A stretch of 58,649 nt of DNA from a virus. Lineage: Duplodnaviria > Caudoviricetes. The translations under genes and the position numbers were made by a program. Each line of letters begins with the position of its first letter. The first letter of the stretch is position 1. Below, piece after piece: positions 41,282-58,649 of this stretch. The notes under the pieces were generated by a model. It saw nothing but the letters and a program-made list of their open reading frames with translations, was not told the DNA's origin and did not search any database. Location: positions 1 through 58,649 of IMG/VR virus record IMGVR_UViG_3300025103_000014, one strand, 5' to 3'.

Positions 41282-41290
41282 GAGACAGTA

Positions 41291-42098: not shown

Positions 42099-42099
42099 C

Positions 42100-42128: not shown

Positions 42129-42155
42129 ACCTATAACTCAACAAGGAGAACACTA

Positions 42156-42347
42156 ATGACCAAAAAACTTATTTTACTAATCTTCCTTCTGATGCAGTCA
42201 TGCACAAGTGGAGGAGCAAGACTTCCTGATGGCTATGATAATTGGTATCAAGCGTATGGCTATGATAGTTGGTATCAAGCGTCACTACCCTCTGTCCAAG
42301 AGTCCTTACAGAGAATAGCAGACAAGGAGTGTTGTAATGAAAACTAA
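42156..42347 (+). CDS. Small lipoprotein-like protein
   Basis: RBS AAGGAG; MTKKLILLIFLLMQS-C signal; internal 27-bp duplication. Confidence 0.6.
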   Translation: MTKKLILLIFLLMQSCTSGGARLPDGYDNWYQAYGYDSWYQASLPSVQESLQRIADKECCNEN

Positions 42348-42510
42348 AAAACCTTGGGGTATTTGGGTTACAACATCTAAACAATGGATGGAAGGTAACA
42401 ACAGACGAAAAGCACGATACGAGTTTCGCCGTGAAGCAGTAAAAGATGCTGAAGACTTTAACAATATGTGGAGAGGCAGGGAAAGCATATATGAGGCAAG
42501 GAAAATATGA
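42337..42510 (+). CDS. Small hypothetical protein (57 aa, not in ORF track)
   Basis: RBS AAGGAG; MKTKKPWGIWVTTSKQWMEG...; ATGA overlap with the next gene. Confidence 0.6.
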   Translation: MKTKKPWGIWVTTSKQWMEGNNRRKARYEFRREAVKDAEDFNNMWRGRESIYEARKI

Positions 42511-44128: not shown

Positions 44129-44216
44129 ACTAGCGAAAGACCCCGAAATAAGAGATTGGCTTATTGAACAAGGATATCAAGTACCCCAACCCAAGGACAA
44201 AGAAAATGACCAGTGA
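43989..44216 (+). CDS. Sigma-70 region 4-like HTH protein
   Basis: MTFTKIAERLGVSRQCV....KR.LNKL; start uncertain; overlaps the 3' end of the preceding ORF. Confidence 0.7.
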   Translation: MGKPNSTSGAPWNGTKMTFTKIAERLGVSRQCVTHTHKRMLNKLEIELAKDPEIRDWLIEQGYQVPQPKDKENDQ

Positions 44217-44457
44217 GAACGAAATTGCTTTATTGAAACTTGATGGATATGATTCTGCTCTCATTGGCAGGGTGCAACGATTCAATACAGAATACTTTCT
44301 GTATGACAAAAATAAAATAATTAAGCAATTGGTAGAGATAGATGGTTTAACAGAAGAGGATGCAGAAGAGTATTTTTCGTACAACATTATTGGTTCGTGG
44401 GTTGGTGAGGGTACTCCTGCTTTTTTAGTGGTGGAGGAAAATGAAGACAACCACTAA
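44206..44457 (+). CDS. Conserved phage hypothetical protein
   Basis: DGYDSALIG...EDAEEYFSYNIIGSWVGEGTP motif. Confidence 0.75.
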   Translation: MTSENEIALLKLDGYDSALIGRVQRFNTEYFLYDKNKIIKQLVEIDGLTEEDAEEYFSYNIIGSWVGEGTPAFLVVEENEDNH

Positions 44458-45613
44458 AATTTTAATAGGTGACTGCCTAGAGAAACTGAAAGAACTACCA
44501 AAAGGTAGTATTCAAACTTGTATTACATCTCCTCCCTACTGGGGACTCCGTGACTATCAAACAGGAACTTGGGTTGGTGGAGATGAGAACTGTTCCCATA
44601 AACGAGAAACAAAGAGGTCAGACAAAACCACAACAGGACACAAGAACTTTGATGAGATTGGTGGGGTTGGGGATGGTATCTACAAGAATGTTTGTAATCG
44701 CTGTGGTGCAACCCGTGAAGACAAGCAACTTGGGCTAGAGGAAACACCAGAAGAGTATGTTGAGAACATGGTAAAAGTGTTCCGAGAAGTACATAGGGTG
44801 CTTCGGGATGATGGTACTTTGTGGCTGAATCTTGGTGATACTTACTGTGGTACTGGACATAAGGGCGACCACAAAGACCCTAAACACGAAGAAGGCAGGA
44901 ACTCTCAGTCAGTTGCAATCAACAACAAGATTAAGGGGTTGAAACAAAAAGACCTAGTTGGAATACCTTGGAGAGTTGCCCTTGCCCTGCAAGCCGATGG
45001 TTGGTACTTGCGTCAAGATATAATATGGCACAAACCAAACCCTATGCCCGAACCTGTAACTGATAGATGCACCAAGGCACACGAATATATCTTTTTAATG
45101 TCAAAGAAACCTAAATACTTCTTTGATAATGAAGCAATAGCAGAACAAGCGAAGTGGGAGAGGTGGGGAAACCAGACAGAAAACAAGGAACACCAAGGTA
45201 CAGCGTGTCATCTAGGGGGTAAAACACTAGAAGAACTACCTATAAAGACAACCAAGAACAAGCGTTCAGTATGGACTGTACCCACACACTCGTATAAAGG
45301 CGCACACTTCGCTACATTTCCCCCAAAACTGATAACACCCTGCATCCTCGCAGGGACTTCGGACAAGGGTTGTTGTGCAGATTGTGGTTCTCCTTATGAA
45401 AGAACTATAGAAAAAGGTGGTTGGGTAAAAACTTGTAAGTGCAATACTGCTGATATAGTTCCCTGCACAGTATTAGACCCATTTGCGGGTTCGGGAACAA
45501 CTTTAGCAATTTCTAAAGAATATGGTCGTAATGGGGTTGCAATTGAACTAAATATAGAGTATACTAGTATGTTAAGTAAACGAGTAGCCGATAAACAAAC
45601 ATTGTTTAATTAA
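44441..45613 (+). CDS. DNA N4-cytosine/N6-adenine methyltransferase (beta class)
   Basis: TSPPY catalytic motif precedes DPFAGSGTT SAM-binding motif; HFATFP. Confidence 0.95.
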   Translation: MKTTTKILIGDCLEKLKELPKGSIQTCITSPPYWGLRDYQTGTWVGGDENCSHKRETKRSDKTTTGHKNFDEIGGVGDGIYKNVCNRCGATREDKQLGLEETPEEYVENMVKVFREVHRVLRDDGTLWLNLGDTYCGTGHKGDHKDPKHEEGRNSQSVAINNKIKGLKQKDLVGIPWRVALALQADGWYLRQDIIWHKPNPMPEPVTDRCTKAHEYIFLMSKKPKYFFDNEAIAEQAKWERWGNQTENKEHQGTACHLGGKTLEELPIKTTKNKRSVWTVPTHSYKGAHFATFPPKLITPCILAGTSDKGCCADCGSPYERTIEKGGWVKTCKCNTADIVPCTVLDPFAGSGTTLAISKEYGRNGVAIELNIEYTSMLSKRVADKQTLFN

Positions 45614-45624
45614 GAAGGAACCAA

Positions 45625-46089
45625 ATGAAAAGAGTAAAAGCAACCTGTATTGGTGTAAATGGCATGATTGAAGAACTATATTTCAATCCCAAAGACATAA
45701 ATCGCTTTGGTAAAGCAGATGATGGGGTAGAGGCGATATGCAAGGTGGGTTATGATGACCGATACGCAGTTATTTTAGCAAGCAGGGGTTCACAAGAGAA
45801 GAAGGACTTGCCTATAAATATGGCGGGTTCACTGTGGTTGAGCGCACATGGTATGCCAAAGATTATCTATGGCAATTTGCTTGTGATTGGAATGATTCCA
45901 AAGGCAACCTCGTTCTCGGATTGTCCAGATGAAGTAGCCCTTCAAGTACCATTACTTCGTGAAGAAGGTGGTGGGGGTAATTTTAAGATGGTGAACTATT
46001 CTGGTTGCTCGGAGCAACTTCTCGATGAGATTATAGACACTGTAAATGAGTTTTTAGGTTTTAATAACGATAATTATGAAAGTGAGTAA
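45625..46089 (+). CDS. Hypothetical protein
   Basis: RBS AAGGA; LPIN..GS...IYGNLLV motif. Confidence 0.7.
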   Translation: MKRVKATCIGVNGMIEELYFNPKDINRFGKADDGVEAICKVGYDDRYAVILASRGSQEKKDLPINMAGSLWLSAHGMPKIIYGNLLVIGMIPKATSFSDCPDEVALQVPLLREEGGGGNFKMVNYSGCSEQLLDEIIDTVNEFLGFNNDNYESE

Positions 46090-46339
46090 TAAACCAATGG
46101 TATTTAAAGTAAAAGAAGTAGAGAGAGTGTATGAAATCAATGGTGATAGACTATTGAAAGCACTCAACGATTGTGGAATGAGTCAAGCAGAACTAGCCCG
46201 TGAATGTGGGTACTTATCTTCTGCTAGGGTGTGTCATATTGTAAAGGGCGGCGTTACACGAATTGGTGGCAAACCACTAAAGAAGATTGTTGGGGCTTTA
46301 TCCAAGAAGGGTGTTTCAATAGAGGGGTTCTACGGCTAA
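46076..46339 (+). CDS. XRE-family HTH protein
   Basis: GMSQAELARECG..S...CHIVKG motif. Confidence 0.8.
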   Translation: MKVSNKPMVFKVKEVERVYEINGDRLLKALNDCGMSQAELARECGYLSSARVCHIVKGGVTRIGGKPLKKIVGALSKKGVSIEGFYG

Positions 46340-46599
46340 TGTTTGCCATAATAAGATTCATTGCAAAGATAATCACCTTGCCCATTTTGGTTGTGAGTGT
46401 TGCGGGTTTAATGCTTACCCTTGGTTTAGCATACTTGTTCTGTGTAACGACACTAAAGATTCTCGGTTCGTGGATATGGAAAAATAAGCGGGAAACACCT
46501 AATGCATTCCTAGATATGGTTTGTGGAGAAGAGCCGAGTTTTGACTCGGAGATAAGAGATATGCTGAACAGCGTTAAGAAAAACACAATGAGTAGATGA
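46339..46599 (+). CDS. Small membrane protein
   Basis: TAATG-coupled start; long hydrophobic N-terminal half. Confidence 0.6.
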   Translation: MFAIIRFIAKIITLPILVVSVAGLMLTLGLAYLFCVTTLKILGSWIWKNKRETPNAFLDMVCGEEPSFDSEIRDMLNSVKKNTMSR

Positions 46600-46635
46600 C
46601 CCTCATCTCATTGTAGACGCATGGAGGCGCAGAGG

Positions 46636-46666
46636 ACGCTCCTGCCCTGATTGGGTGGGAGCGTTT
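46636..46666 (+). terminator. Stem-loop terminator preceding the repeat block
   Basis: ACGCTCCTGCCC-TGATT-GGGTGGGAGCGT followed by TT. Confidence 0.6.
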
Positions 46667-46669
46667 CTC

Positions 46670-46827
46670 ATTGCAACTCTGATTGGAAACTGATTGCAAC
46701 CTCTGATTGGAAACTGATTGCAACCTCTGATTGGAAACTGATTGCAACCTCTGATTGGAAACTGATTGCAACCTCTGATTGGAAATGGAAACTGATTGGA
46801 AACTGATTGCAACCTCTGATTGGAAAC
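46670..46827. repeat. Tandem repeat family A (24-bp unit TTGCAACCTCTGATTGGAAACTGA)
   Basis: About 5-6 units read directly. Confidence 0.95.
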
Positions 46828-46896
46828 AAAGATAAAAAGACCTGCATATCCTTTTTAAATAATAAAAGATAAAAAGACCTGTATATCCTTTTTAAA
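46828..46896. repeat. Repeat family B (AAAGATAAAAAGACCTGYATATCCTTTTTAAA), 2 copies
   Basis: The same unit recurs at 52.27, 53.63, 54.48, 55.3 and 55.65 kb. Confidence 0.95.
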
Positions 46897-47003
46897 GAAA
46901 AAACTTTTTTTATTTTTTTACACTTTGCTATTGACAAGTCAGTAAAGTATGGTATAATACTCATCAGTTACGAAACGAAACGCACAATGAATAGGAGTGC
47001 AAC

Positions 47004-47222
47004 ATGAACATCTATACAGGTTATGAAACAACTGCAAGAAAAATTAAAAAAGGTGAGTGGTTATATCGTGGTTATAGAATCAAGTTAAAAATGAATAAAC
47101 CATTATCTCAACTGCTCGGTGGTAGATTCACCTACTGGGAAATTGAAGGAATGAATAAGTCATTCTCACAACTCGGTGAAGCAAGAAGGTACATTGATAA
47201 AAAATTATCACAAGGTACTTGA
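47004..47222 (+). CDS. Early cassette hypothetical protein (basic)
   Basis: Leader RBS AGGAG; stop codon lies inside the next TTGACA. Confidence 0.75.
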   Translation: MNIYTGYETTARKIKKGEWLYRGYRIKLKMNKPLSQLLGGRFTYWEIEGMNKSFSQLGEARRYIDKKLSQGT

Positions 47223-47295
47223 CAAGCAAGTAAAAGTATGGTATAATACTCACGGTTACGAAACGAAACGCACAAAGAATAGGAGTGCAAAAAAC

Positions 47296-47508
47296 ATGAT
47301 AAAAATACTATGTAAAGAAACCAATGAGGTACATGAGTGGACAATATCTCAAGTGCTTGAGGAAATCAACCGAGAACGCTCGGACGAATGGACTGCATAC
47401 AACCATAACGATTGGCGAGATGGGTGGATGGAATGGGTAGAAGGGGGAGAGTTTTATACTCTATGCCTAGCACAAACCCTAAAAGATTCAGCAGAGGAAT
47501 TAAAGTAA
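47296..47508 (+). CDS. Early cassette hypothetical protein (Trp-rich)
   Basis: Start re-placed at ATG 47296 after the leader AGGAG. Confidence 0.75.
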   Translation: MIKILCKETNEVHEWTISQVLEEINRERSDEWTAYNHNDWRDGWMEWVEGGEFYTLCLAQTLKDSAEELK

Positions 47509-47509
47509 A

Positions 47510-47632
47510 ATGAACCAACAAATGAACAGACCAAAACCAAGAAGAATGTACGCTCCATTTTTATTCGTACTAGCGGTATGGACTTACACACTTGCCTACA
47601 TCTTTGAACTTTATATGAGGTACTCACAATGA
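47510..47632 (+). CDS. Small membrane peptide (40 aa)
   Basis: MNQQMNRPKPRRMYAPFLFVLAVWTYTLAYIF...; ATGA overlap with the next gene. Confidence 0.5.
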   Translation: MNQQMNRPKPRRMYAPFLFVLAVWTYTLAYIFELYMRYSQ

Positions 47633-47934
47633 AACACTTTAAGATTACAATAGGAATACGAGATGGGGACAACGAGTATATGGAAACTTGGGAGATGGAT
47701 AACCCCTGTTCAGGTTTTTTTGGGGAACTGCTCCCCGATTCAGACCCACATAACCGTACCGATATGGACAATAAGTTTCTTCTCAATCACTTTTTTGGAG
47801 AAGGTTTGTGTTTGGGCGAAGATGATGAGGGTAACGAATCCTTAGAAGCCACGGAAGATGAAGGTGGACGTTATTGGCTAGGATTTGGCGAAAGATTGGT
47901 GTGGATTGAAGGCATCGAGGAACTAAAACAATGA
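47629..47934 (+). CDS. Acidic hypothetical protein
   Basis: RBS GAGG; 101 aa. Confidence 0.7.
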   Translation: MKHFKITIGIRDGDNEYMETWEMDNPCSGFFGELLPDSDPHNRTDMDNKFLLNHFFGEGLCLGEDDEGNESLEATEDEGGRYWLGFGERLVWIEGIEELKQ

Positions 47935-48383
47935 AACAATGTACAAAGTGTAAAGGTACAAACATACAACAAGCGTTTGTCGGTTGGCATAACCTGAAAG
48001 AAGATACCATTGACGGAGAACGATACTACGAGAATCAATACTTTAATGCAGATGACGATGTTTACTTTTGCAAAGATTGTGATGAAACAGTAAATGTAGA
48101 GGAGGAGAATGAGCCAAAGGTAGCCGACACAGTGAACTACGAAGTTGGAGATAAAGTAAAGTTTCTTGTGGAGATAGAAAGAGGTATGACAACAACCGTA
48201 CTCAAAGATGCAATAGGAACTATTGCCAACATTGATGAAGATTTTGTCTATGTTACTATCCACGATGAAGATTGTGCAAAAGACTTGGCAGAGTGGGATG
48301 GGCAACTATACTTATCCAACACACCTGTTACAGATTTTGATAAATATGACTATGAAGGTTTAGATAGTATAGAAAAAAGATAG
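47931..48383 (+). CDS. Zinc-ribbon acidic protein
   Basis: CTKC...CKDC pair. Confidence 0.7.
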   Translation: MKQCTKCKGTNIQQAFVGWHNLKEDTIDGERYYENQYFNADDDVYFCKDCDETVNVEEENEPKVADTVNYEVGDKVKFLVEIERGMTTTVLKDAIGTIANIDEDFVYVTIHDEDCAKDLAEWDGQLYLSNTPVTDFDKYDYEGLDSIEKR

Positions 48384-48482
48384 TATAGAAAAAGTTGAGT
48401 AAGGTACTTGACAAGTAGGTAAAGACCTGCTATAATGCTTACAGTTACGAAACGAAAACGCTCACAGAATAGGAGAGCAACA

Positions 48483-49082
48483 ATGCCACACAGCCCAGAA
48501 TTATCTAACCGACTTGAAGTAGGGGAACAGACAGAACTATATGCAGACAACACCACTCTTATTGTGGGTGTTACCGAAGATGGCACTATCCAGATAGACA
48601 TAGATAAGTGCGATGGAAGTGAAAGTGATTCGCTAATTATCAATCCAGATAAAACAGTCGTCAATGCTCACCTTCCAGACCTAGAGGGAGAGAACTTACT
48701 CTCTGCTAATACTTATGTGCTAATGGGAATACTGCAAAAACTGTACGGTGGTGATTTTCACAAACTTATGGCTACTGTTCTTGATGAGTTTCAAAGTAAA
48801 CATGGTCTTGAACCTATGTGTGCTTTAGAATCACAATCAGGCAACTACAAAACAGACGAACAACTTGAGTGGTATAAGAACTTCAGTGCATTGTGGGAAC
48901 TAATGGAAGAAGATTGGGTGGATAACAACTGCTCAGAAATGCAAGTAGTAGTGTTAAATGATGGTGAAACTTACACAGGTTTGAAAGGTAGCAAGATTCT
49001 TACTATCCCCACCTACATTGACGAAAATGATGTTGATACTTATGTTAAAGACAACTACAAAGATGGGGTGGACATTCAATGA
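48483..49082 (+). CDS. Early cassette hypothetical protein
   Basis: Start re-placed at ATG 48483 after AGGAG. Confidence 0.75.
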   Translation: MPHSPELSNRLEVGEQTELYADNTTLIVGVTEDGTIQIDIDKCDGSESDSLIINPDKTVVNAHLPDLEGENLLSANTYVLMGILQKLYGGDFHKLMATVLDEFQSKHGLEPMCALESQSGNYKTDEQLEWYKNFSALWELMEEDWVDNNCSEMQVVVLNDGETYTGLKGSKILTIPTYIDENDVDTYVKDNYKDGVDIQ

Positions 49083-49090
49083 ACCTATTC

Positions 49091-49144
49091 AGTAGAGGCG
49101 GAGTCCTGCGTTGTGGGGATTGGCGTGGGCTTCGCTTCTGCTTT
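49091..49144 (+). terminator. Long G-U-rich RNA hairpin
   Basis: GTAGAGGCGGAGTCC pairs with GGGCTTCGCTTCTGC using 4 G-U pairs, so it forms on the plus strand only. Confidence 0.55.
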
Positions 49145-49385
49145 GATTGGAAACTGGTTGCAATGGTTGTAATGGTTGCAACTGATTGGAAACTAAAATG
49201 ACAACACTTCTACTACCATTTTTAATCTTCGGGATTGCTCCTGTTTTACTAATTGCTATAAATGATACTATGCGCGACTAAAAACTTTTTTAATTTTTTT
49301 ACATTTTGCTATTGACAAACTCGTAAATGATGCTATAATACTCACAGTTACGAAACGAAACGCACAAAGAATAGGAGTGCAACAA

Positions 49386-49823
49386 ATGACTACAGAACAA
49401 ACATACTGGAATGACAAGGGCAAGTATCAAAAAGAGTACGATGCCCTGTGGCTGAAACTTGTTCCATCTCAAGGCGAAGCGGATACTGTTCATGGTGAAA
49501 CATTAAGAGCAGTAAGCAGACTGTACTACGATGTTATGAATAACGGTGCGGGTAATGTTATCGAGTGGTCAGAAGGAAACTATGATAACGACTATGAAGA
49601 AACAACAGAAGTAAACTCTTACTTCCAACCACTTCTTAATCTTGTAGAAGCAAGAACAACAATAAATGTAGAAGCAATACTCATATCTTGCGTTAAAAAG
49701 AGTGGGCTTAATTGGTTTAATGGCGAAGAATGTGCAGAACTTGAAACAGTAATAGATGATGTAATGGAATATGTTATCGAAAAAGATAAAGAAATTACTG
49801 CAAGATACTTGACAAACAAGTAA
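49386..49823 (+). CDS. Acidic early protein, possibly DMP19/DUF4375-like DNA mimic
   Basis: LW.KLVPSQGEADTVHGE.LRA..RLYYD..NNG motif; acidic composition. Confidence 0.55.
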   Translation: MTTEQTYWNDKGKYQKEYDALWLKLVPSQGEADTVHGETLRAVSRLYYDVMNNGAGNVIEWSEGNYDNDYEETTEVNSYFQPLLNLVEARTTINVEAILISCVKKSGLNWFNGEECAELETVIDDVMEYVIEKDKEITARYLTNK

Positions 49824-49880
49824 ATGTATGGTATAATACTTACTCAACAACAACGCGCACAAGAATAGGAGTGCAAAACA

Positions 49881-50888
49881 ATGACTACGGAAACAACAAC
49901 AGAACAACCAAGAACAAAAGTATCTACGATAGTGGATAGGTTGTTCACACAACTAGAGGGTACAAGAACATCGTTCGATTCTTATATTAAGGATGTACCA
50001 ACACCAACAGAGGGAACTATTCTTGTTCGGTGGCAGAGGGATGGCAGAGGAACTCTTAAGGGCATAGAAGAAACTCCCGCAATTACAGTAACCAAAGAAG
50101 ATTTAGATGGTTTTGTTTTTGAGCAAGCAAGTAAAATAGAGAACAACACCGAATCAATATGCTTGTATCACTGGGGCAGAGTAGTAGCAGAAGATAAAGT
50201 AAAAAGGTTTGGCAGGAAAAGCACAGTAAGAGTTTATCTTGAACGAGCATACAAAGTACATTATGGCAGACATTCTTACAGCAAGATGAACAACATTCAA
50301 TTTGAACTACCAAATGATTCAGACATACATAGAATCGTGGTAGAGGTTAGTGGGTATGGGAAGGATGTAAAGAGAGCATTCCCTTTTAAAGATGTATCAC
50401 AATTACAAGACGCAATTACAAAGGCGGTTGCTTATACTTTTAAGAACTCTAAAGTGTTTGCTCCCTCACCAAAAGATAGTAGGAATAAGCACGAAGAACG
50501 CTCAATCACTGAACAGTGGGCTGAGGATATTTTAAGACATCGGGAGAAGCGTATGAAGTTAGATACAATCACACTAGAAGAACAACGAATGAGTGTGTTT
50601 GCAGAACAACTAATTGCATCGGGATTCATGCAAAAAAGATATGACTTATCTTACGAAGCAAAACCACTAACGGTTGAAGGTAAGGGTAAGTGTGAATCAG
50701 AAGGCAGAGCCATAAGAGCCGAGAAACAAACCGAACTGGGCTTAATCACAATAACCGTACAGGTTGATTCTGATGGAGAGTATCGTGCAGGGCTAGGAAT
50801 AAATGCCAGACATAACAACCGAATGCCGATGAAGGCAAACACGATTAAAGTGCAGAACTTAATAGATATGGCTACTTCAATAAAATGA
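49881..50888 (+). CDS. Early cassette hypothetical protein
   Basis: 335 aa ORF after the conserved leader. Confidence 0.8.
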   Translation: MTTETTTEQPRTKVSTIVDRLFTQLEGTRTSFDSYIKDVPTPTEGTILVRWQRDGRGTLKGIEETPAITVTKEDLDGFVFEQASKIENNTESICLYHWGRVVAEDKVKRFGRKSTVRVYLERAYKVHYGRHSYSKMNNIQFELPNDSDIHRIVVEVSGYGKDVKRAFPFKDVSQLQDAITKAVAYTFKNSKVFAPSPKDSRNKHEERSITEQWAEDILRHREKRMKLDTITLEEQRMSVFAEQLIASGFMQKRYDLSYEAKPLTVEGKGKCESEGRAIRAEKQTELGLITITVQVDSDGEYRAGLGINARHNNRMPMKANTIKVQNLIDMATSIK

Positions 50889-50927
50889 TAAAAACTCGCC
50901 CTGTGATTCAGAGTATAAAAGAATCCG

Positions 50928-50953
50928 AGTGGTAGGCGTAACCTACTATTTTT
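50928..50953 (+). terminator. Intrinsic terminator
   Basis: TGGTAGG-CGTAA-CCTACTA followed by a T run. Confidence 0.65.
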
Positions 50954-51011
50954 AAGAAAAAAGTTTAGTAAGGTACTTGACAAGTAAGTAAAGGTATGGT
51001 ATAATGCAGTT

Positions 51012-51147
51012 TGACAAGTGAATAGGGAGGCAGTCAATGGTCGTACCCCTAGTAAACCGTCCACCAACAAGGTATTTGAGGCGGTTCTTAATTGAACTAG
51101 ATAGATGGTACATACTTAAAGGCGAACGACTGCTTCCCTTTTTTTAA
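51012..51147 (+). ncRNA. Candidate structured small RNA, alternatively a 36-aa ORF (51037-51147) with self-sequestered RBS
   Basis: Has its own consensus promoter; 12-bp closing stem 51024-51035 / 51128-51139 followed by a T run; nested inner helices. Confidence 0.55.
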
Positions 51148-51238
51148 GAAAAAAGTTTAGTAAGGTACTTGACAAGTAAGTAAACACTTGGTATAATACT
51201 TACTCAACAATAAAGCACAAAGAATAGGAGTGCAAAAC

Positions 51239-51640
51239 ATGACACACACCAAACAAGACAGTGAATATGCTAGAGAACTTCTAGCCCTTAGCCAACGGCA
51301 AAAGGCAGAAGCAGAACTGAAACAACGACTCATAAATGATGCAGAGATTGTGGCTAAAGAAAAACAAAGAGCAGATTTGCATGGAGTTATTGCAGAGGCA
51401 ATAAATGATGTACACAATACTCAACGGTTTAGCAATTCCGACTTGATGGACATTCGAGAAATTGTTACAGACCGACTTATGAAAAATGGTTTGATGAACG
51501 AAGAAGAAAAAGATAAGTTTCTTCGTACTGTTCAGATTTTTGCTTGCAACGATAAAGATTGGGCGAAAAAAAGCCCAAGCAAGACAAAGAGCAAGAGCAG
51601 TTACTTGCCGAACGCAGAATCAGTAGATGGGAGATGGTGA
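51239..51640 (+). CDS. Early cassette hypothetical protein (coiled)
   Basis: ATG 51239 after AGGAG. Confidence 0.75.
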   Translation: MTHTKQDSEYARELLALSQRQKAEAELKQRLINDAEIVAKEKQRADLHGVIAEAINDVHNTQRFSNSDLMDIREIVTDRLMKNGLMNEEEKDKFLRTVQIFACNDKDWAKKSPSKTKSKSSYLPNAESVDGRW

Positions 51641-51644
51641 AAAC

Positions 51645-52076
51645 ATGGAAGCAAAACTTTTAACAGCAGGGCGGTACTTTGAAGAAGGTAACAAGAGAAC
51701 ACCACCGATGTCTATGGGCGTGTATCGGATGGTGCGTAACCTGTTAAAAAAGGCATACAAGGGTAGACCTGTACTTGGTGTAAAGGTTGTTATGCAAGAG
51801 GATGGTAACAGGATGTTAGAGCCAACGATAGCGTGGGAAGAAGGGCTTACCGACTGTAAATACTTCTTTTTGATGTTGCACAATGACGGCACTATCTACT
51901 CAATTTTTGGCAACCGAAAAGAGTTTTTAAGCATTTTTCCAGATGATGACATTGATGACTTTAGCCATGTAGACAAAGACAAAGAAGTAATGTTCGGACT
52001 ACCGCTTCCAAAGGATAGCCCAAGAATATGGGCAATGGACTGTGAACGATGTACAGCGATTTATATGTTAAAATGA
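51645..52076 (+). CDS. Hypothetical protein
   Basis: ATG 51645 after GGAG/GGTG. Confidence 0.7.
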   Translation: MEAKLLTAGRYFEEGNKRTPPMSMGVYRMVRNLLKKAYKGRPVLGVKVVMQEDGNRMLEPTIAWEEGLTDCKYFFLMLHNDGTIYSIFGNRKEFLSIFPDDDIDDFSHVDKDKEVMFGLPLPKDSPRIWAMDCERCTAIYMLK

Positions 52077-52225
52077 ATAATGTAGAGGCAATGCTGAGGA
52101 TGTACCAAAGAGCGAACCCCACACTTACAAGGGGTGAGTGCATTGAACTTATGAAAAAAAAGGAACGACACTTTCTTGGTTATGATATTAAACTCAAACC
52201 AAACAAGAAGCGAAAGAAACGCTGA
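52073..52225 (+). CDS. Small basic protein (50 aa)
   Basis: ATGA-coupled; ends KPNKKRKKR with the stop supplied by the family A repeat. Confidence 0.5.
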   Translation: MNNVEAMLRMYQRANPTLTRGECIELMKKKERHFLGYDIKLKPNKKRKKR

Positions 52226-52336
52226 TTGAGAGTGATTGGAAACTGATTGGAAACTGATTGGAAACAAAGATAAAAAGACCTGTATATCCTTTTTAAAAAT
52301 AAAAGAAGATAAAAAGACCTGTATATCCTTTTTAAA
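52223..52336. repeat. Family A (11-mer) plus family B x2 block
   Basis: TGATTGGAAAC x3 followed by two B units. Confidence 0.9.
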
Positions 52337-52446
52337 GAAAAAACTTTTTTAATTTTTTTAAGTTTATGTATTGACAAGTGAGTAAAAGATGGTATAATAC
52401 TTACCAGTTACGAAACACAACGCTCAATGAATAGGAGAGCAAAACA

Positions 52447-52914
52447 ATGACAACCGAAACAGCAACCAATTTTTCTACAAAAATAAACTACGCTCAACTT
52501 AACAAGCAATGGCAAGCCAATGTTACTAAGGCAAGGCAAAAAGTAACAGGATGGTACGGAAGAAGAATGGTCGAAAATCGTTCTCTTTACTTATCAGCAC
52601 AAAAAGATAATAACGAAGATTTTGATGTTGAACTATTTAGAAACGGCGGGGGGTATGAATCGGAGCAAGGAAACCCTATGGTTTTTACTCAAGAAGAAAT
52701 ATCTTGTTGCATTGAAGAAGGAAAGGCACACTTTTTAGTAAAAGAAAATGAATTAAACATCACAATCGAACAAGGAATGGATGGTGTTAAAGAACGAGAT
52801 AAAGCATACGGGCGTGGTAAACTTGGAGAAGTATTAGACTATGATGCAGAAGTATGCCATGTTAATTGTACAATCAAGAGCGATGGAACATTTAAGATAT
52901 GGATTGACGAGTAA
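52447..52914 (+). CDS. Early cassette hypothetical protein
   Basis: Leader with AGGAG; 155 aa. Confidence 0.8.
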   Translation: MTTETATNFSTKINYAQLNKQWQANVTKARQKVTGWYGRRMVENRSLYLSAQKDNNEDFDVELFRNGGGYESEQGNPMVFTQEEISCCIEEGKAHFLVKENELNITIEQGMDGVKERDKAYGRGKLGEVLDYDAEVCHVNCTIKSDGTFKIWIDE

Positions 52915-52993
52915 CCACTTGACAAGTAGGTAAACACTTGGTATAATACTTACCAGATACGAAACGAAACGCACAAGAATAGGAGTGCAAAAA

Positions 52994-53554
52994 ATGAACC
53001 GACTAACAATTAGATATGATGAAAGTGCAGAATCCCCAAGAGAAGAATGTTGTAATTTAGGTACTCTTGCTTGTTCTCACAGTAACTACAATATGTCTGA
53101 TAAAGACGTATCAATCGAAGATGCACCGAACCAAGATGATGATGATTATGTCATGCTCCCAGTTTATATGTATGAACATGGTGGTTGCACAATAAGCACT
53201 TCACCGTTCTCTTGTTCTTGGGATAGTGGTCAAATTGGGTGGATATGGTGCAGTTTTGAGAACGCTAAAAATCACTTACAGAATCCCGATGTTACTTATG
53301 AAATGATTGTTAAGTATCTAAAAGGCGAGATAGAAACATACGACACTTTTATTCGTGGTGATGTTTATGGTTTTGTACTTGAAGAATCCACTACTTGTGG
53401 GGATTGTAACCACACCGAATGGGAAGTAACCGACTCATGTTGGGGCTTCTTGGGAGATAACCATGTAGAGAACATGGCGGATTGTTTACCAGAAGAAGCA
53501 CACGAAGCACTGAAAGACATCGAAGTAGATAAGCCGATGTTGATTGGAAACTGA
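52994..53554 (+). CDS. Conserved acidic phage protein
   Basis: SPRE..NLG, LPVYMYEHGG, WDSGQIGW, GDVYGF and DSCWGF motifs. Confidence 0.8.
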   Translation: MNRLTIRYDESAESPREECCNLGTLACSHSNYNMSDKDVSIEDAPNQDDDDYVMLPVYMYEHGGCTISTSPFSCSWDSGQIGWIWCSFENAKNHLQNPDVTYEMIVKYLKGEIETYDTFIRGDVYGFVLEESTTCGDCNHTEWEVTDSCWGFLGDNHVENMADCLPEEAHEALKDIEVDKPMLIGN

Positions 53555-53697
53555 TTGGAAACTGATTGGAAACTGATTGGAAACTGATTGGAAACTGATT
53601 GGAAACTGATTGGAAACTGATTGGAAACAAAGATAAAAAGACCTGCATATCCTTTTTAAATAATAAAAGATAAAAAGACCTGTATATCCTTTTTAAA
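53541..53697. repeat. Family A 11-mer TGATTGGAAAC x8 plus family B x2
   Basis: Perfect tandem at 53541-53628. Confidence 0.95.
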
Positions 53698-53806
53698 GAA
53701 AAAACTTTTTTTATTTTTTTAAGTTTATGTATTGACAAACTCGTAAATGATGGTATAATACTTACCAGTTACGAAACGAAACGCACAAAGAATAGGAGTG
53801 CAAACA

Positions 53807-54112
53807 ATGACAGAACTAGATTTTGTAAAATCGGACAACATAGGCGGAACATCCCTAAAAGGTAGCGTAGAATGCTCTTACAGCGACATTGTGGCTGTAT
53901 TCGGAGAACCATCAGAGGGAACAGACAAGACGGACGCAGAGTGGGCTATAGAGTTTCCTTGTGGAACTGTAGCAACCCTTTACAACTGGAAGAATGGCGT
54001 AAACTATTGCGGGGCATACGGTACGCCAGTGGAGCAAATTACACAGTGGAACATCGGTGGGCATTTTGGGGCGGATTCTGTAGAACTTGTTAAGAAGGCA
54101 CTTGACAAGTAG
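53807..54112 (+). CDS. Conserved phage hypothetical protein
   Basis: GTSLKG...Y..IV..FGEP, DKTDAEW, ATLYNWK and WNIGG motifs. Confidence 0.8.
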   Translation: MTELDFVKSDNIGGTSLKGSVECSYSDIVAVFGEPSEGTDKTDAEWAIEFPCGTVATLYNWKNGVNYCGAYGTPVEQITQWNIGGHFGADSVELVKKALDK

Positions 54113-54176
54113 GTAAATACTTGCTATAATGTATACAGTTACGACACTACAACGCTCTAGAATAGGAGAGCAATAC

Positions 54177-54371
54177 ATGAAACAAAAAACCAAACAACCC
54201 GACACTTGCGTATTTTGCGGGAGTATGTCGTTAAGGTTACTAAAAGATAGAGCCACTAGCGACCCAATTTTAAGCCCCGAAGGCATGAAAATATATAGAT
54301 GTGGACGATGCTGTTCTATGAGCAATGAATACACTGTTGACATTAAAGTAGACGAATTGGAAACTAAATGA
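54177..54371 (+). CDS. Small zinc-ribbon protein
   Basis: CVFC...CGRC; ATG 54177 after AGGAG. Confidence 0.7.
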   Translation: MKQKTKQPDTCVFCGSMSLRLLKDRATSDPILSPEGMKIYRCGRCCSMSNEYTVDIKVDELETK

Positions 54372-54419
54372 CAACACTTCTACTACCATTTTTAATCTTC
54401 GGGATTGCTCCTGCAAAAA

Positions 54420-54587
54420 TGATTGCAAATGATTGCAAATGATTGCAAATGATTGCAAATGATTGCAAATGATTGCAAATGAAAGATAAAAAGACCTGTA
54501 TATCCTTTTTAAATAATAAAAGATAAAAAGACCTGTATATCCTTTTTAAATAATAAAAGATAAAAAGACCTGTATATCCTTTTTAAA
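54420..54587. repeat. Family A variant 10-mer GATTGCAAAT x6 plus family B x3
   Basis: Perfect tandem at 54421-54480. Confidence 0.95.
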
Positions 54588-54696
54588 GAAAAAACTTTTT
54601 TAATTTTTTTAAGTTTATGTATTGACAAACTCGTAAATGATGGTATAATACTTACCAGTTACGAAACGAAACGCACAAAGAATAGGAGTGCAAAAC

Positions 54697-55173
54697 ATGG
54701 AACGAATAACACACTATAAACAACTAGAAGGGGCAACAGTCGAGAGCGATAAAATGAACTTCAGCGAGGAAGTACACGCCCTAGCCCTACACTTGAACGA
54801 TGATACCGCAACACTTGACGAGGTAGAAAGATGGCTAGATAATGAGGATTATCTAGTATTTGATGATGAGGATGCCGACAAAAAAGCAGAGGAATATATT
54901 AGGAATACGGTATGGGGCTTCAATGCTGACTTTCTCTCTTGGTATTGCCCAGATGGAATAGAAGCGGAGCATATCACCGCCTTAAGGGGTGATTCTTGCG
55001 AGGGGTGCAACGAGGCACTGGTAGTCCTTGTGGAAGCAGGGCAAGGGATGGAGAAGTTTATCAGCGAGGCAATAAGTACCGATGGTCGTGGGCATTTTAT
55101 TAGTTTTTATGATGGCGAAGAAAACGAAGTAACATACAACGGCACAGATTATTATATTTACAGGATAAACTAA
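54697..55173 (+). CDS. Highly acidic conserved phage protein
   Basis: DGRGHFISFYDGEE.E...YIYRIN motif; Asp/Glu-rich. Confidence 0.8.
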   Translation: MERITHYKQLEGATVESDKMNFSEEVHALALHLNDDTATLDEVERWLDNEDYLVFDDEDADKKAEEYIRNTVWGFNADFLSWYCPDGIEAEHITALRGDSCEGCNEALVVLVEAGQGMEKFISEAISTDGRGHFISFYDGEENEVTYNGTDYYIYRIN

Positions 55174-55209
55174 TGAACCAATAAAAAAACAAAGACAACC
55201 CAACAAAGC

Positions 55210-55234
55210 AAGCCCCGCCCAAGGGGCTTTTTTT
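55210..55234 (+). terminator. Intrinsic terminator
   Basis: AAGCCCC-loop-GGGGCTT followed by a T run. Confidence 0.85.
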
Positions 55235-55239
55235 GTGGG

Positions 55240-56150
55240 CTGATTGGAAACTGATTGCAAACTGATTGCAAACTGATTGCAAACTGATTGCAAATGAAAG
55301 ATAAAAAGACCTGCATTTTTTAAAAATAAAAAAAGAAAAGAGTATCTGTATATCCTTTTAAAAATAAAAGAAGATAAAAAGACCTGCATATCCTTTTTAA
55401 AAATAAAAGAAGATAAAAAGACCTGCATATCCTTTTTAAAATACCCCCCAAATGGCTAAAAATAACGATACCCTCATTTTTGGGCTAAAAACAGGGCTTT
55501 CAGTAAAGCCCCTAGAATCGCCTGTACTGGCTTTGTTGGTGTGTAAATGACTCGTACATCGTTGACAGCAAGATATAGCATACAGGGCATTCTAGACCCC
55601 TTAAAAGGCAAGTGTTAAAATAGGCAAACTGTAGCCCCTAAATAATAAAAGATAAAAAGACCTGCATATCCTTTTTAAATAAAAGAAGATAAAAAGACCT
55701 GCATATCCTTTTTAAAAATAAAAGAAGATAAAAAGACCTGCATATCCTTTTTAAATAAAAGAAGATAAAAAGACCTGCATATCCTTTTTAAAAATAAAAG
55801 AAGATAAAAAGACCTGCATATCCTTTTTAATAATAAAAGATAAAAAGACCTGTATATCCTCTTAAAAAATAAAAGAAGATAAAAAGACCTGTATATCTTT
55901 TTAAAAATCTTACACTTTTTGAAAAAAAAATGCTAATTTTACCCCTTGCCCCCTTGACAAATGAGAAACACGCTTTTCAGCCTAAAAATGGCTATTTTTT
56001 TCGAGAATCGCCTGTACTGGCAGTATCGAAAAAAATAGACTCATGGGTCATTGACAGCAAGATAAGGCGTACAGGGCATTCTAGCCCCCTTTAAAGGCAA
56101 GCCAGACCAGAACCCCGTTTTTAGCCCAATAAAGGCGGTTTTTACCCCAT
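55240..56150. repeat. ~0.9 kb non-coding repeat complex (A x5, B x~11, two long hairpin repeats)
   Basis: A at 55240-55295; B at 55297-55440 and x7 at 55648-55905; hairpin repeats at 55512-55610 and 56004-56101. Confidence 0.9.
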
Positions 56151-56287
56151 ACTATATATACATAAAAAAAATAAAAAAAGATACAATAGACTACTTGACA
56201 ACGGCATAAATGACGATATAATAAAGAGCATAACAACAACGGACAACAGTCCACAAACCCCAACCCCCAGAATAGGAAACAAGAACA

Positions 56288-57253
56288 ATGGCTAAGAAAA
56301 ATAAACAAATGACGAACAACGAGATGTACCAAATGATTACCGATAGAGTGGTCAAAGCATTAGAAGCCGATATCATCCCGTGGGTACGACCATGGAGCGA
56401 AGAGGGCGGAGCAAGAAGTTTCCCCCGAAATGTAGCAAGCGGAAAAGCATACAACGGTATCAACACTTGGCTTCTATCTTTAATGGGCTACGCTTCTCCG
56501 TGGTGGCTAACCTACAAACAACTTCGAGCCATCGGCGGAACTGTTAAAGAAGGCGAAAAAGATAACACAAGCCCTGTAGTGTTCTGGAACTTTTTTAAGA
56601 CTAAAGATAAGACAACCAAGAAGGAAAAAGTAATCCCATTCATGAAACATAGTAACGCTTACAATATCGAGCAATGCGACATACCAGAAGCGGAACTGCA
56701 AAAACTTGCCAAGCGACTTGATAAACTTGCAGGTAAAAAAGTTGTAAAGACTGACAAAGACAACAACGAAAAAAACGCAGTTTGTGAAGCAACTATTCGG
56801 GCATATTTAGATGGTCAAAAAATCACAGTATTAGAAGGAAGCGCATCGTACAATTTTGCGAACGACAATATAAAAATGCCACCGCTTGATACATTCACAA
56901 CAAGCGAACACTACTACGCAACTTTTTACCATGAAGCGGTACACAGTACTGGTCATGAATCGCGCCTTAATCGAAAAATCCAAAACCAATTCGGTACGCC
57001 AGAATATGCAAGGGAAGAACTCACGGCGGAACTTGGAGCAAGTTTCCTATGTGGCATCACTGGTATAGATACGCAACCAGTAACCGAGAACCGCGATGCT
57101 TATATAAAGGGATGGCTTAAAGCAATAAAGAACGACAACAAGTGTATCGCCGTAGCAAGTAGCAAGGCAGGCAAGGCAAGCGATATGATTCTCGGTACAA
57201 CTCAAAAAGGCGATACGGTATACACGCCACGCAAAAAGAAAACAAAGAAGTAA
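56288..57253 (+). CDS. ardC: ArdC-family antirestriction protein (ssDNA-binding plus zincin-like domain)
   Basis: ITDRVV..LE....PW..PW, N..SGKAY.GIN, WLTYKQ, YYATFYHEAVHSTGH..RLNR, YAREEL.AELGA and YI.GWL motifs. Confidence 0.93.
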   Translation: MAKKNKQMTNNEMYQMITDRVVKALEADIIPWVRPWSEEGGARSFPRNVASGKAYNGINTWLLSLMGYASPWWLTYKQLRAIGGTVKEGEKDNTSPVVFWNFFKTKDKTTKKEKVIPFMKHSNAYNIEQCDIPEAELQKLAKRLDKLAGKKVVKTDKDNNEKNAVCEATIRAYLDGQKITVLEGSASYNFANDNIKMPPLDTFTTSEHYYATFYHEAVHSTGHESRLNRKIQNQFGTPEYAREELTAELGASFLCGITGIDTQPVTENRDAYIKGWLKAIKNDNKCIAVASSKAGKASDMILGTTQKGDTVYTPRKKKTKK

Positions 57254-57262
57254 AGACACAAG

Positions 57263-57288
57263 AAGCCCCCAAAAATGGGGGCTTTTTT
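57263..57288 (+). terminator. Intrinsic terminator (repeated at 57784-57809 and 58243-58269)
   Basis: AAGCCCCC-loop-GGGGGCTT followed by a T run. Confidence 0.9.
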
Positions 57289-57417
57289 AATTTAAAAAAA
57301 TCTAAAAAAAGATACAATAGACTACTTGACAACGGCATAAATGACGATATAATAAAGAGCATAACAACAACGGAGTACAGACACTCCACAACCCCAACCC
57401 CTGAAAGAGGTAAACAA

Positions 57418-57762
57418 ATGACCGAGCAACGACAACAACCAACAGCAAGCCACTACACGATAACAAACGAAAGCACAAATGCAATAGTAGGAATTGCAAG
57501 CGACATACCAAACCTGTACTATGTTCTTTGTTCGATGGCGATGCCCGATAGCATTCTGCAAGATGAACTAAGAATAACATACGGCGGTATGTGTATCGCT
57601 TGCCATGAAACCGCAGATACACTATGTGAGCATTTTCGACAGGAAGCGGTAGAAGCACAACAACAACAACCAGAAGAGGAAACCATCGAAGATATCACAG
57701 CCGAGTACGAGCAAGAACTAGACGCTCAACTTGCAGATTTTTACGAGGACGATTTTAGATAA
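57418..57762 (+). CDS. Acidic early protein
   Basis: RBS GAGG; very acidic C-terminus. Confidence 0.75.
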   Translation: MTEQRQQPTASHYTITNESTNAIVGIASDIPNLYYVLCSMAMPDSILQDELRITYGGMCIACHETADTLCEHFRQEAVEAQQQQPEEETIEDITAEYEQELDAQLADFYEDDFR

Positions 57763-57938
57763 ACAACAACCCAGAACACGAAGAAGCCCCCAAAAATGGG
57801 GGCTTTTTTAATGTAAAAAAAATGTAAAAAAGATACAATACACTACTTGACAACGGCATAAATGACGATATAATAAAGAGCATAACAACAACGGAGTACA
57901 GACACTCCACAACCCCAACCCCTGAAAGAGGTAAACAA

Positions 57939-58223
57939 ATGACCGAGCAACGACAACTAGAAGAATTACAAAGATTGGTAAGAGATAGAGTAGGGGCGGA
58001 AGATATCGGATTAACAATCGAAGAATGGGATAGAGTAGCGCGGGCAGAATGCGGAAGTGGTAAGGCATTAGCCAAGGTAATAGCCGAGCAAAAAGAAGAA
58101 GAAGAAGAAGCAAGAATGCATTTAAATCATTTAATGGAATGCGTACGAGCCAATGACACAAACAATTTTTCCCTTGAAGATTGGCGTAGATTAGCCCTAG
58201 CAGGGTCGATATACTGGCAATAG
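57939..58223 (+). CDS. Helical early protein
   Basis: RBS GAGG; shares its MTEQRQ start with the previous gene. Confidence 0.75.
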   Translation: MTEQRQLEELQRLVRDRVGAEDIGLTIEEWDRVARAECGSGKALAKVIAEQKEEEEEARMHLNHLMECVRANDTNNFSLEDWRRLALAGSIYWQ

Positions 58224-58344
58224 ACAACCCACAACCCAGAAGAAGCCCCCACCATTAGGGGGCTTTTTTAGTGGGGTAAGATAAGCGGTACGAGGTACAG
58301 ACACTCGCACCGACAACCACCGCCAAAAAAGTAAAAAGCCCATA

Positions 58345-58538
58345 CAGCGAATCGTGAACCGCTACAGGGCATACCATATATGGGGTACTATATGTGGTGG
58401 TGAATCGAGAACCGCATACCATATATGGGGTACGATATGTGGTATGCTTCACGATTCACGGTACTATATGTGGGGGCTATCATAACCCGAACAACGAGCC
58501 ACGATTCTTGTTGAGATTGAGAATCAATCTCAACAAGA
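58345..58538. repeat. Terminal palindrome/repeat cluster, possible packaging-initiation region
   Basis: GCATACCATATATGGGGTAC x2; GAATCGTGAA / TTCACGATTC inverted pair; perfect 15-bp stem with GAA loop at 58506-58538. Confidence 0.6.
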
Positions 58539-58649
58539 TAGGGGGTACAGGCACTAACAGAACCCGAACGGCGGAGAAATGTAGAGAAATCAGGAAGTGA
58601 AAATTTAGAGTGAATCTGCCTTTACCGAGGAGTAAACACCATTCTCTAA

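Follow-up and report, generated by a model that had tools for sequence, protein, structure and literature searches.

Why would a phage genome carry fifteen perfect host-type promoters in a single row, each placed in front of different small genes? This question is raised by the linear IMG/VR virus record IMGVR_UViG_3300025103_000014 (58,649 bases, the whole of which is called the window below; about 98% complete by estimate, with siphovirus-like gene content). The row of promoter-leader modules and cargo genes, here called the array, occupies the right-hand fifth of this genome and is contiguous and one-way on the + strand. In the reading that we consider probable, the array is PeSL-like, PeSLs being motifs described in T4-type phages: its modules would be standard expression sockets that double as substrates of homologous recombination. 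The region would be the accessory-gene arm of a marine siphovirus-like phage, presumably expressed early as judged from the sequence. Each socket (75-180 nt) combines an AT-rich tract, a perfect host sigma-70-type promoter, a leader of 45-50 nt and a strong AGGAG with an ATG, and unmodified host RNA polymerase would be expected to transcribe any open reading frame (ORF) behind a socket, with efficient translation to follow. The sockets are near-identical direct repeats 0.2-1.5 kb apart; homologous recombination between them, within a genome or between co-infecting relatives, could delete, duplicate, insert or swap genes while the expression signals stay intact. This last step is supported by the comparison with relatives reported below.

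PeSLs are motifs of about 100 bp made of an AT-rich tract, a sigma-70-type promoter, a stem-loop terminator and a Shine-Dalgarno sequence with a start codon, the promoter of RB49/phi1 being a perfect TTGACA-N17-TATAAT (PMC2839356). They are found upstream of ORFans in hyperplastic regions of T4-type phages, where they mediate insertions and deletions (indels) and mini-circles; indels and replacements between close relatives are bounded by PeSLs, and homologous exchange between the motifs was proposed as the mechanism (PMC2839356). PeSLs were described in the T4-type pairs RB49/phi1, PST/T4 and nt-1/KVP40 (PMC2839356, PMC4122927). The second of these papers extends them to other T4-likes and does not contain the word stem 'siphovir'; neither paper mentions siphoviruses.

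When the window was scanned for TTGACA-N16-18-TATAAT, 17 matches were obtained, compared with a mean of 0.05 and a maximum of 1 in shuffled sequences (0/100 shuffles reached 17). Fifteen of them, with a spacer of 16 or 17, occupy the + strand from 46931 to 57874, which agrees with the 15 consensus + strand promoters in about 11 kb counted in the initial annotation. The remaining matches, at 42100 (+) and 37970 (-), lie on either side of the replication genes and face outward from the polymerase region; both are conserved in a related contig of 36.9 kb (G001). The 31-kb structural module contains no perfect promoter. As a sequence match, the sigma-70-type consensus of PeSL promoters is found at 12/12 positions in 15/15 units, and an extended -10 TG accompanies the first 12 promoters and is absent from the last three. 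The layout of the array is given below (P, promoter; F, cargo family; the first coordinate of each promoter line, and of the P6 unit, is the start of the promoter).

46653..46898 (+), arrays upstream of P1: 24-bp double units, 11-bp units (TGATTG[G/C]AAA core, 12 copies), unit of about 39 bp twice
46931..47003 (+), P1, promoter and type-1 leader; subtype A, AT-rich tract upstream
47004..47222 (+), cargo F4, 72 amino acids (aa); no family match
47219..47295 (+), P2, promoter and type-1 leader
47296..48383 (+), cargo F5 (70 aa), F6 (40 aa), F7 (101 aa) and F8 (150 aa); no family match
48408..48482 (+), P3, promoter and type-1 leader; stem allele GCTC/GAGC
48483..49281 (+), cargo F9 (199 aa), an ORF of 40 aa and the beginning of a small hydrophobic ORF
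49312..49385 (+), P4, promoter and type-1 leader
49386..49823 (+), cargo F10, 145 aa
49809..49880 (+), P5, promoter and short-form type-1 leader; overlaps the end of F10
49881..50888 (+), cargo F11, 335 aa
50977..51168 (+), P6 unit: promoter, atypical leader, structured RNA of about 125 nt or 36-aa ORF, 12-bp stem and U-tract
51169..51238 (+), P7, promoter and short-form type-1 leader
51239..52225 (+), cargo F13 (133 aa), F14 (143-149 aa) and F15 (41-58 aa)
52221..52336 (+), arrays upstream of P8: 11-mer three times, 39-mer twice
52371..52446 (+), P8, promoter and type-1 leader; subtype A, stem allele GCTC/GAGC
52447..52914 (+), cargo F16, 155 aa; present or absent among relatives
52919..52993 (+), P9, promoter and type-1 leader
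52994..53554 (+), cargo F17, 186 aa; phrog_6186, uncharacterised
53540..53699 (+), arrays upstream of P10: 11-mer eight times, 39-mer twice
53732..53806 (+), P10, promoter and type-1 leader; subtype A, 181-nt unit 98% identical to that of P12
53807..54112 (+), cargo F18, 101 aa
54102..54176 (+), P11, promoter and type-1 leader; GCTC/GAGC
54177..54371 (+), cargo F19, 64 aa
54417..54589 (+), arrays upstream of P12: 10-mer six times, 39-mer three times
54622..54696 (+), P12, promoter and type-1 leader; subtype A
54697..55173 (+), cargo F20, 158 aa; phrog_15770, no function label
55210..55229 (+), terminator-like hairpin that closes the type-1 array
55240..55945 (+), noncoding repeat block
56195..56287 (+), P13, promoter and type-2 leader; 5' hairpin GGAC..GUCC
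56288..57253 (+), ArdC-like protein, 321 aa; ArdcN and zincin-like MPTase-PolyVal
57263..57290 (+), terminator hairpin and T-tract
57326..57417 (+), P14, promoter and type-2 leader; 5' hairpin GGAGU..ACUCC
57418..57762 (+), cargo F22, 114 aa
57784..57810 (+), terminator hairpin and T-tract
57847..57938 (+), P15, promoter and type-2 leader
57939..58223 (+), cargo F23, 94 aa; the repeat extends into this ORF, so that its first 19 nt are the same as in F22
58246..58268 (+), terminator hairpin and T-tract

Two further parts of a PeSL are present in these units. Read directly, the AT-rich tract upstream of the -35 box is clear in 10/15 units, namely P1, P4, P8, P10 and P12 (subtype A), P6 and P7 (subtype B) and P13-P15 (type 2); it is partial at P3, and the upstream flank of P2, P5, P9 and P11 is the end of a coding region. 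AGGAG or GAGG is found 6-9 nt before the ATG in 15/15 units. Downstream of the promoter, 11 of the first 12 units have in common the 3' leader core GAATAGGAG[T/A]GCAA-N2-8-ATG (type 1). The 5' part of this leader, G[T/A]TACGA[A/C]AC, is present in 9 of the first 12, while P5 and P7 have a shorter 5' part and the P6 leader is wholly different. A second leader (family D6) is common to P13-P15, P14 and P15 being 97% identical over 177 nt and P13 64%. The statement of the initial annotation that most of the first 12 promoters share one leader and the last three a second one was thus confirmed, as was its description of 1-4 small unrelated genes behind each promoter: the cargo amounts to about 24 + strand ORFs of 36-335 aa, and in blastp comparisons at E<1e-5 no two cargo proteins of the window cluster together.

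Such a density of promoters could also be read as a sink, as the initial annotation suggested, in which 15 promoters and their AT tracts titrate host RNA polymerase and the cargo is secondary. The perfect 12/12 match of all 15 promoters, the extended -10 of 12 of them and the cargo-free tandem promoters found in relatives would suit this explanation, which could coexist with PeSL-like sockets; set against it, the cargo is under purifying selection behind strong ribosome sites, so its expression matters, and we regard the sink as very improbable indeed. In 16/16 testable orthologous cargo pairs (pairs with substitutions), the ratio of nonsynonymous to synonymous substitution rates (dN/dS) lies between 0.01 and 0.65; on these ratios, the cargo ORFans are real genes under purifying selection. 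The association of PeSLs with ORFans is likewise found here, as 20 of the 22 cargo ORFs searched have no Pfam match (E<=0.01) and 18 have no PHROG match, with one functional label among the 22.

Relatives that carry the array were found in metagenomes. A megablast of the array against 50,697 phage records gave no match, and exact and degenerate scans of viral contigs for the leader and for the 39-mer gave 0 matches; the promoter pattern by itself had more than 126 matches in viral contigs, mostly unrelated, and is not specific. Viral relatives were also sought via PolA (1 locus) and TerL (65 loci), and the five closest by TerL were aligned to the window: L138 and L139 (TerL 96-98% identical in aa) align from their first base and L140-L142 (74-75%) from TerL on. 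The array is absent from the contigs of the PolA relative and of these five TerL relatives. It is never included in close IMG/VR relatives (78-92% nucleotide identity), whose contigs stop at the array borders, one ending about 2 kb past the polymerase and two beginning at window positions 84 and 480. A metagenome scan with a cargo-independent leader pattern yielded 42 distinct loci on 28 records, of which six have 4 to about 11 leader copies, three are single-copy relatives, two have only the leader, and 17, each with a single match, were taken as chance matches since neither further similarity nor a perfect promoter accompanies the leader. The leader scan of about 596 Gb of prokaryote genomes returned 15 scattered single matches, no array and no clue to the host.

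The window was compared with six related metagenome contigs, the cargo families being numbered from blastp. The order of cassettes in the window and in three of these contigs is as follows, a P that stands by itself being a promoter without intervening cargo.

Window: P-F4, P-F5-F6-F7-F8, P-F9, P-F10, P-F11, P-F12, P-F13-F14-F15, P-F16, P-F17, P-F18, P-F19, P-F20
c1328: P-F34, P-F29-F6-F8, P-F9-F24, P, P-F4', P-F10, P, P-F11, P-F12, P-F14, P, P-F26, P-F17, P-F18
c18217: P, P-F26, P-F16, P-F17, P-F30, P-F28
c1909: ... F14, P, P-F26, P-F17, P-F18, P-F19-F44, P-F30, P-F28

F16 (98.7% aa identity) is shared by the window and c18217, where it lies between F26 and F17, and is absent from c1328 and c1909. 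F34 (88% aa) takes the first slot in c1328 and a later slot in c4204, and the pair F30 and F28 (89-94% aa) directly follows F17 in c18217 and comes after F18-F19-F44 in c1909. F13 was found in the window only, F7 is missing from c1328, and 'empty' tandem promoters are present in relatives. These differing strings indicate that cassettes were gained, lost, replaced and reordered among relatives. Synonymous divergence (dS) between the window and c1328 ranges from 0.047 (F10) to 0.288 (F14) across cassettes, which points to mosaic ancestry, as expected if the cassettes have different histories.

Homology breakpoints between the window and the six contigs number 40 distinct positions. Twenty of the 40 fall in promoter-leader modules, which make up 18.8% of positions (binomial p=8e-6) and 54.8% of the noncoding positions of the array; this resembles the indels and replacements bounded by PeSLs, with the reservation imposed by the second share. 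Any intragenomic repeat, including modules, accounts for 29/40 breakpoints versus 30.5% of positions, nine of the 29 being in repeats other than modules.

Modules and their cargo also differ in their histories. In 11/21 orthologous pairs, similarity is lower in the module (from -35 to ATG) than over the first 240 nt of its cargo, with cargo/module identities of 99%/88% for F10, 96-98%/83-88% for F11, 90%/77% for F16 and 93%/78% for F19. In 17/21 pairs, at least one module is nearer to a paralogue in the same genome than to its orthologue. The 21 pairs are not independent and the modules are short; within these limits, the comparison supports the exchange of modules independently of cargo. In a three-way alignment of the F16 indel, the changeover falls within the promoter: in c1328 the F26 flank is followed, from the -35 box on, by a sequence identical to P9 of the window, the segment common to all partners being CTTGACAAGTAGGTAAA.

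Contigs and unitigs of four marine runs were aligned to positions 45000-58649. In a run of about 360x, 8/8 of the pieces listed end at modules or arrays. At the joint 54657->47255, 38 letters fit both sides; at 51140->50949, both sides share 44 letters and the P6 unit of 192 bp is duplicated; 52993->51645 connects the end of the P9 leader with the ATG of F14; and 49400->47515, whose depth in the same run is about 8% of the main one, reproduces the order of contig c4792. Joints that go back in this way fit either circles or tandem duplications. The contigs thus lend indirect support to the placement of many junctions in the units together with the independent exchange of modules, and the initial proposal of a recombination-shuffled platform fared well: there is no common cargo order, breakpoints and joints occur at the repeats, and modules appear to be exchanged independently of cargo. 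Identical cargo order in related phages, with no junctions at the repeats, had been named as what would speak against shuffling; the relatives differ in order and have junctions at the repeats.

Several points weigh against PeSL-like sockets. A terminator-type stem-loop, a defining part of PeSLs, is present in only 5/15 units. Eleven of the 40 breakpoints lie outside repeats (five intragenic, five at plain gene boundaries and one in unique intergenic sequence), and the loss of F7 is exact at gene boundaries with no promoter involved, from which it follows that other processes act too. With modules at 54.8% of the noncoding array, there is no enrichment against a noncoding-only null, and the excess of breakpoints in modules is not separable from the simple survival of intergenic breakpoints. 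The two apparent translocations (F4 and F20) have only 39-41% aa identity. The scan of 100 ORF translations revealed a RuvC-like resolvase but no phage recombinase, so exchange would have to rely on host functions or on phage proteins that escaped recognition. A joint that has a short side or less than 95% likeness can stem from other organisms or repeats, contigs cannot show rare events, and metagenome contigs and unitigs, several of which may be re-assemblies of the same samples, can mis-join across repeats. Finally, we infer promoter strength and early timing from the sequence, and also the recombination machinery at work and the roles of the cargo.

Part of these observations would be expected if the modules were conserved for expression only and illegitimate recombination struck anywhere, intergenic breakpoints being those that survive selection and the repeats having no mechanistic part. 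The 20 of 35 non-intragenic breakpoints that fall in modules are no excess over the 54.8% noncoding share, F7 was lost exactly at gene boundaries and five breakpoints are intragenic. What this explanation leaves aside is the uncoupling of module and cargo (11/21 pairs with the more diverged module, 17/21 with a module nearer to a same-genome paralogue), the joints with 38 and 44 shared letters inside modules, the F16 junction inside the promoter and the 'empty' tandem promoters of relatives; we therefore hold it to be rather unlikely.

A second concern is that the variant orders are chimeric joins made by the assembler across repeats of 75-180 nt in mixed populations. Assemblies do break at modules, close-relative contigs do stop at the array borders, unitigs end at modules and several contig pairs are identical, possibly as re-assemblies of one sample. 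Mis-joining cannot create the at least 20 ORFs of the relatives that have no homologue in the window, however, and orthologous cargo differs by 1-30% in aa identity, so that the contigs represent distinct genomes; in addition, dS differs between cassettes, and one order is found in a Joint Genome Institute (JGI) contig and again at a unitig joint from a public run. An artefact of assembly as the source of the variant orders is accordingly very unlikely.

PeSL-like sockets may be set beside other known systems. With PeSLs, the array has in common the promoter, the AT tract, the ribosome site, the association with ORFans and the pattern of breakpoints. It differs from them in its genome, a 58.6-kb siphovirus-like phage with a tape-measure protein, a tail terminator and a siphovirus-like portal rather than a T4-like myovirus; in being one contiguous one-way row, whereas PeSLs are spread over several hyperplastic regions; in the lack of a terminator stem-loop in most type-1 units, the conserved part extending instead into the 45-50-nt leader; and in one module subtype that carries 11-bp and 39-bp tandem arrays. 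Because 10/12 type-1 units lack the stem-loop and the genome is not T4-like, we describe the array as working like PeSLs and do not class it as a member.

The array resembles an integron in being a set of unrelated small gene cassettes that differ in content from one relative to another, and an integron-like system was part of the initial proposal, which called it integrase-free. A site-specific system with a dedicated recombinase acting at defined sites would give the superficial picture of unrelated small genes separated by repeats. In contrast to the promoterless cassettes and single common promoter (Pc) of integrons, there are 15 promoters for 15 cassettes; no match to integrase or to serine or tyrosine recombinase families was found in the 100 ORF translations scanned, and the junctions, with their extended shared sequence, resemble homologous exchange. 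No attC-type sites were identified by the repeat search, which covered direct repeats only, with no attC model run. In mechanism the array is therefore not integron-like, and the comparison drawn in the initial proposal is misleading; a dedicated site-specific system appears scarcely credible.

The host-takeover module of SPO1 and the early clusters of T5 likewise have strong host-type early promoters before small genes, mostly of unknown function, near the genome end. The array has no sequence relation to them, and we know of no shown role of the SPO1 and T5 promoters in cassette shuffling. In the open-access literature, no description of such cassettes outside T4-like phages was found. The published shuffling is that of T4-type myoviruses, and the array shows PeSL-type logic in a phage that is unrelated to these, small, uncultured, marine and siphovirus-like. 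Drawn from natural populations and not from a pair of laboratory isolates, the evidence supports repeated early-promoter units as a general phage route to the turnover of accessory genes, probably host-takeover and anti-defence genes, with expression kept. Short-read assemblies break at arrays of this kind, so that the arm will often be missing from viral catalogues; it is absent from the contigs of all four close relatives that were inspected. For new early genes, the modules indicate the places to search, with the ArdC-like gene as a positive control, and both the tandem arrays attached to modules and the separable leader are concrete candidates for regulatory elements.

The type-1 leader contains a 4-bp stem (GCAC...GUGC) with the ribosome site in its loop, which is replaced by the GCTC/GAGC allele at P3, P8 and P11. 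Across 37 distinct leaders of the window and its relatives, the third pair of the stem is A-U in 20, U-A in 15, G-U in 1 and unpaired in 1; 99.3% of cells pair, compared with 10-75% when the 3' partner is slid by 1-3 columns, and the covariation score was reached by 0/500 shuffles. Thermodynamic support for the hairpin was not obtained (z = -0.98 and -0.24). The evidence for the stem is modest because it is thermodynamically insignificant, only one pair varies and the copies are related. In the type-2 leader, the 5' hairpin of P13 differs in its stem letters from that of P14/P15, and both versions pair. Two more distant contigs carry the type-1 leader between ORFs with no consensus promoter, at 1983-2033 of L224 and on the - strand of L225 (core at about position 1890 of the reverse complement), and resemble the window in the leader only. 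This suggests that the leader is a separable translation or processing element.

Tandem arrays of 10/11-bp and about 39-bp units are attached to four modules (P1, P8, P10 and P12). The motif TGATTG[G/C]AAA occurs 32 times in the window, 31 copies being in 46680-55294 and all 31 on the + strand. The 39-mer core has 18 copies, all on the + strand and all within 46837-55898, and its last copy lies exactly 56 nt before the -35 box in 4/4 subtype-A promoters of the window and in 3/3 such promoters in relatives. The same units recur in the noncoding block of about 0.7 kb at 55240-55945, which consists of the 11-mer five times, units of about 39 bp, a unique core of about 190 nt and the 39-mer seven times; its GC content is about 35%, it is 89% conserved in c1909, and no promoter is found directly downstream. 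Part of the block lies between the copies of a 64-nt repeat (55549 and 56038, 84% identical), and in one run a contig skips exactly from one copy to the other. Possible roles of this block are those of an origin, a packaging-related site or a regulator platform. For the tandem arrays in general, candidate roles are a binding platform for a regulator or nucleoid protein, a replication origin, or oriented sites of recombination or protection.

These elements lend themselves to another explanation, in which tandem arrays, perfect promoter and leader would form a separable regulatory kit of three layers rather than passive PeSL-like repeats. The arrays could then be protein-binding platforms that switch all subtype-A promoters together or, alternatively, oriented Chi-like sites that guard the entering DNA end and stimulate exchange next to them. 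The leader, with its covarying stem, could give translational control a common handle, or serve an RNase that brings the early phase to a close. If true, dedicated elements would direct both the exchange and the expression of cassettes, a feature in no PeSL description; we judge such a kit decidedly unlikely. A possible regulator of the array itself is encoded just upstream, at 46076-46339: this 87-aa protein, a candidate on sequence grounds, has a weak HTH_3 match (20.0 bits, under the cut-off) and is 100% identical in c1328, even though the neighbouring genes are not the same there.

Terminators are distributed unevenly. The type-2 units are followed in 3/3 cases by a strong hairpin and T-tract, and P14 and P15 have a hairpin just upstream as well. 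In the type-1 array, terminator-like hairpins are found only after F11 (before P6), after the P6 unit (before P7) and after F20, the 4-bp leader stem not being a terminator; most type-1 cassettes should accordingly be read through from upstream promoters.

The P6 unit (50977-51168) is the exception among the first 12. A stretch of about 125 nt folds to -40.2 kcal/mol (z = -2.66; 0/200 shuffles fold as well) and is closed by a 12-bp stem with a U-tract. The alternative 36-aa ORF has its ribosome site buried in a stem, and the product of the unit may be a small RNA rather than this ORF. The P6 leader, GCAGTTTGACAAGTGAA, includes a second -35-like word. Similar units, made of a promoter, GC[A/G]GTTTGACAAGTGAA and a short structured stretch, were found in relatives at position 5673 of c1328 and position 1813 of c8938. 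A search of Rfam gave 4 matches, all under the gathering score and all terminator look-alikes.

Among the cargo, the 321-aa product of 56288-57253 was matched by PF08401 (106.6 bits, cut-off 22.6) and PF18818 (122.6 bits, cut-off 27.5), as well as by phrog_7245 'anti-restriction protein' (E=1.2e-73), and it is about 39% identical to the 'ArdC-like antirestriction protein' of phiCbK-like Caulobacter phages. With the ArdC N-terminal and the zincin-like MPTase-PolyVal domains both recognised in its sequence, it is an ArdC-like anti-restriction protein by homology. When used as a query against viral contigs, it gave no match. The anti-defence or takeover role that the initial annotation assigned to the cargo is thus backed by homology for this one of about 24 ORFs and by none for the rest. 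PADLOC returned nothing for the cargo except one borderline NsnC match (E=0.00099). For F11, there was no lead in the Atlas, and tblastn gave no homologue in the annotated phage collection. The family of F17 (phrog_6186) comprises at least 453 homologous clusters and has neither a name nor a Pfam domain; its members in cultured large siphoviruses tend to sit near genome ends. The F17 profile found no solved structure, the AlphaFold model of F17 (predicted local distance difference test, pLDDT, 89.4) had no Foldseek match at E<=0.001, and the best Z of VIA-align was 4.8, under the noise guidance of that tool. A small hydrophobic ORF (MTTLLLPFLIFGIAP...) begins with a 61-nt repeat (49196-49256 and 54366-54426, 90% identical) and has its own promoter and leader in c1328; the second copy of the repeat in the window runs straight into the 10-mer array.

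The remainder of the genome comprises the following regions.

148-31264 (+), siphovirus-type structural module: TerL, portal, head morphogenesis, scaffold, major head, tape-measure, tail terminator, baseplate hub of phiJL001/gene transfer agent (GTA) type
31303-36897 (-) and 39470-45613 (+), replication and DNA-modification genes: RuvC-like resolvase, primase-helicase-like protein, SNF2 helicase, family-A DNA polymerase, N6/N4 methyltransferase

The portal is at most about 39% identical (about 38-39%) to portals of cultured phages, mostly siphoviruses of Proteobacteria. A DnaT_2 domain ('putative DnaT-like ssDNA-binding protein', ssDNA being single-stranded DNA; 151 bits) is encoded at 13546-14070 within the head-tail structural module. 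The search for tRNA genes found none. All 24 public runs listed as containing array sequence are labelled marine metagenomes, five of them holding at least 0.88 of the sampled words, and there is no RNA run among the 24. Near the right end of the record, at 58369-58443, a 30-nt repeat is present twice (97% identical, 45 nt apart). Contigs skip from 58335 to 58542 in two runs, and 58492 joins back to 55322 in two runs, so the right end is arranged differently in relatives.

Clusters of 5-8 perfect sigma-70 promoters within 2.7-4.6 kb were also seen in unrelated IMG/VR contigs (L021, L045, L072, L076, L079, L081, L085, L090 and L024/L025), several of which come from genomes of 90-207 kb. The overall architecture of dense perfect promoters with short conserved leaders is common. 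Each of these sets has its own short conserved leader, and some have a GC stem-loop beside the -35 box, like classical PeSLs.

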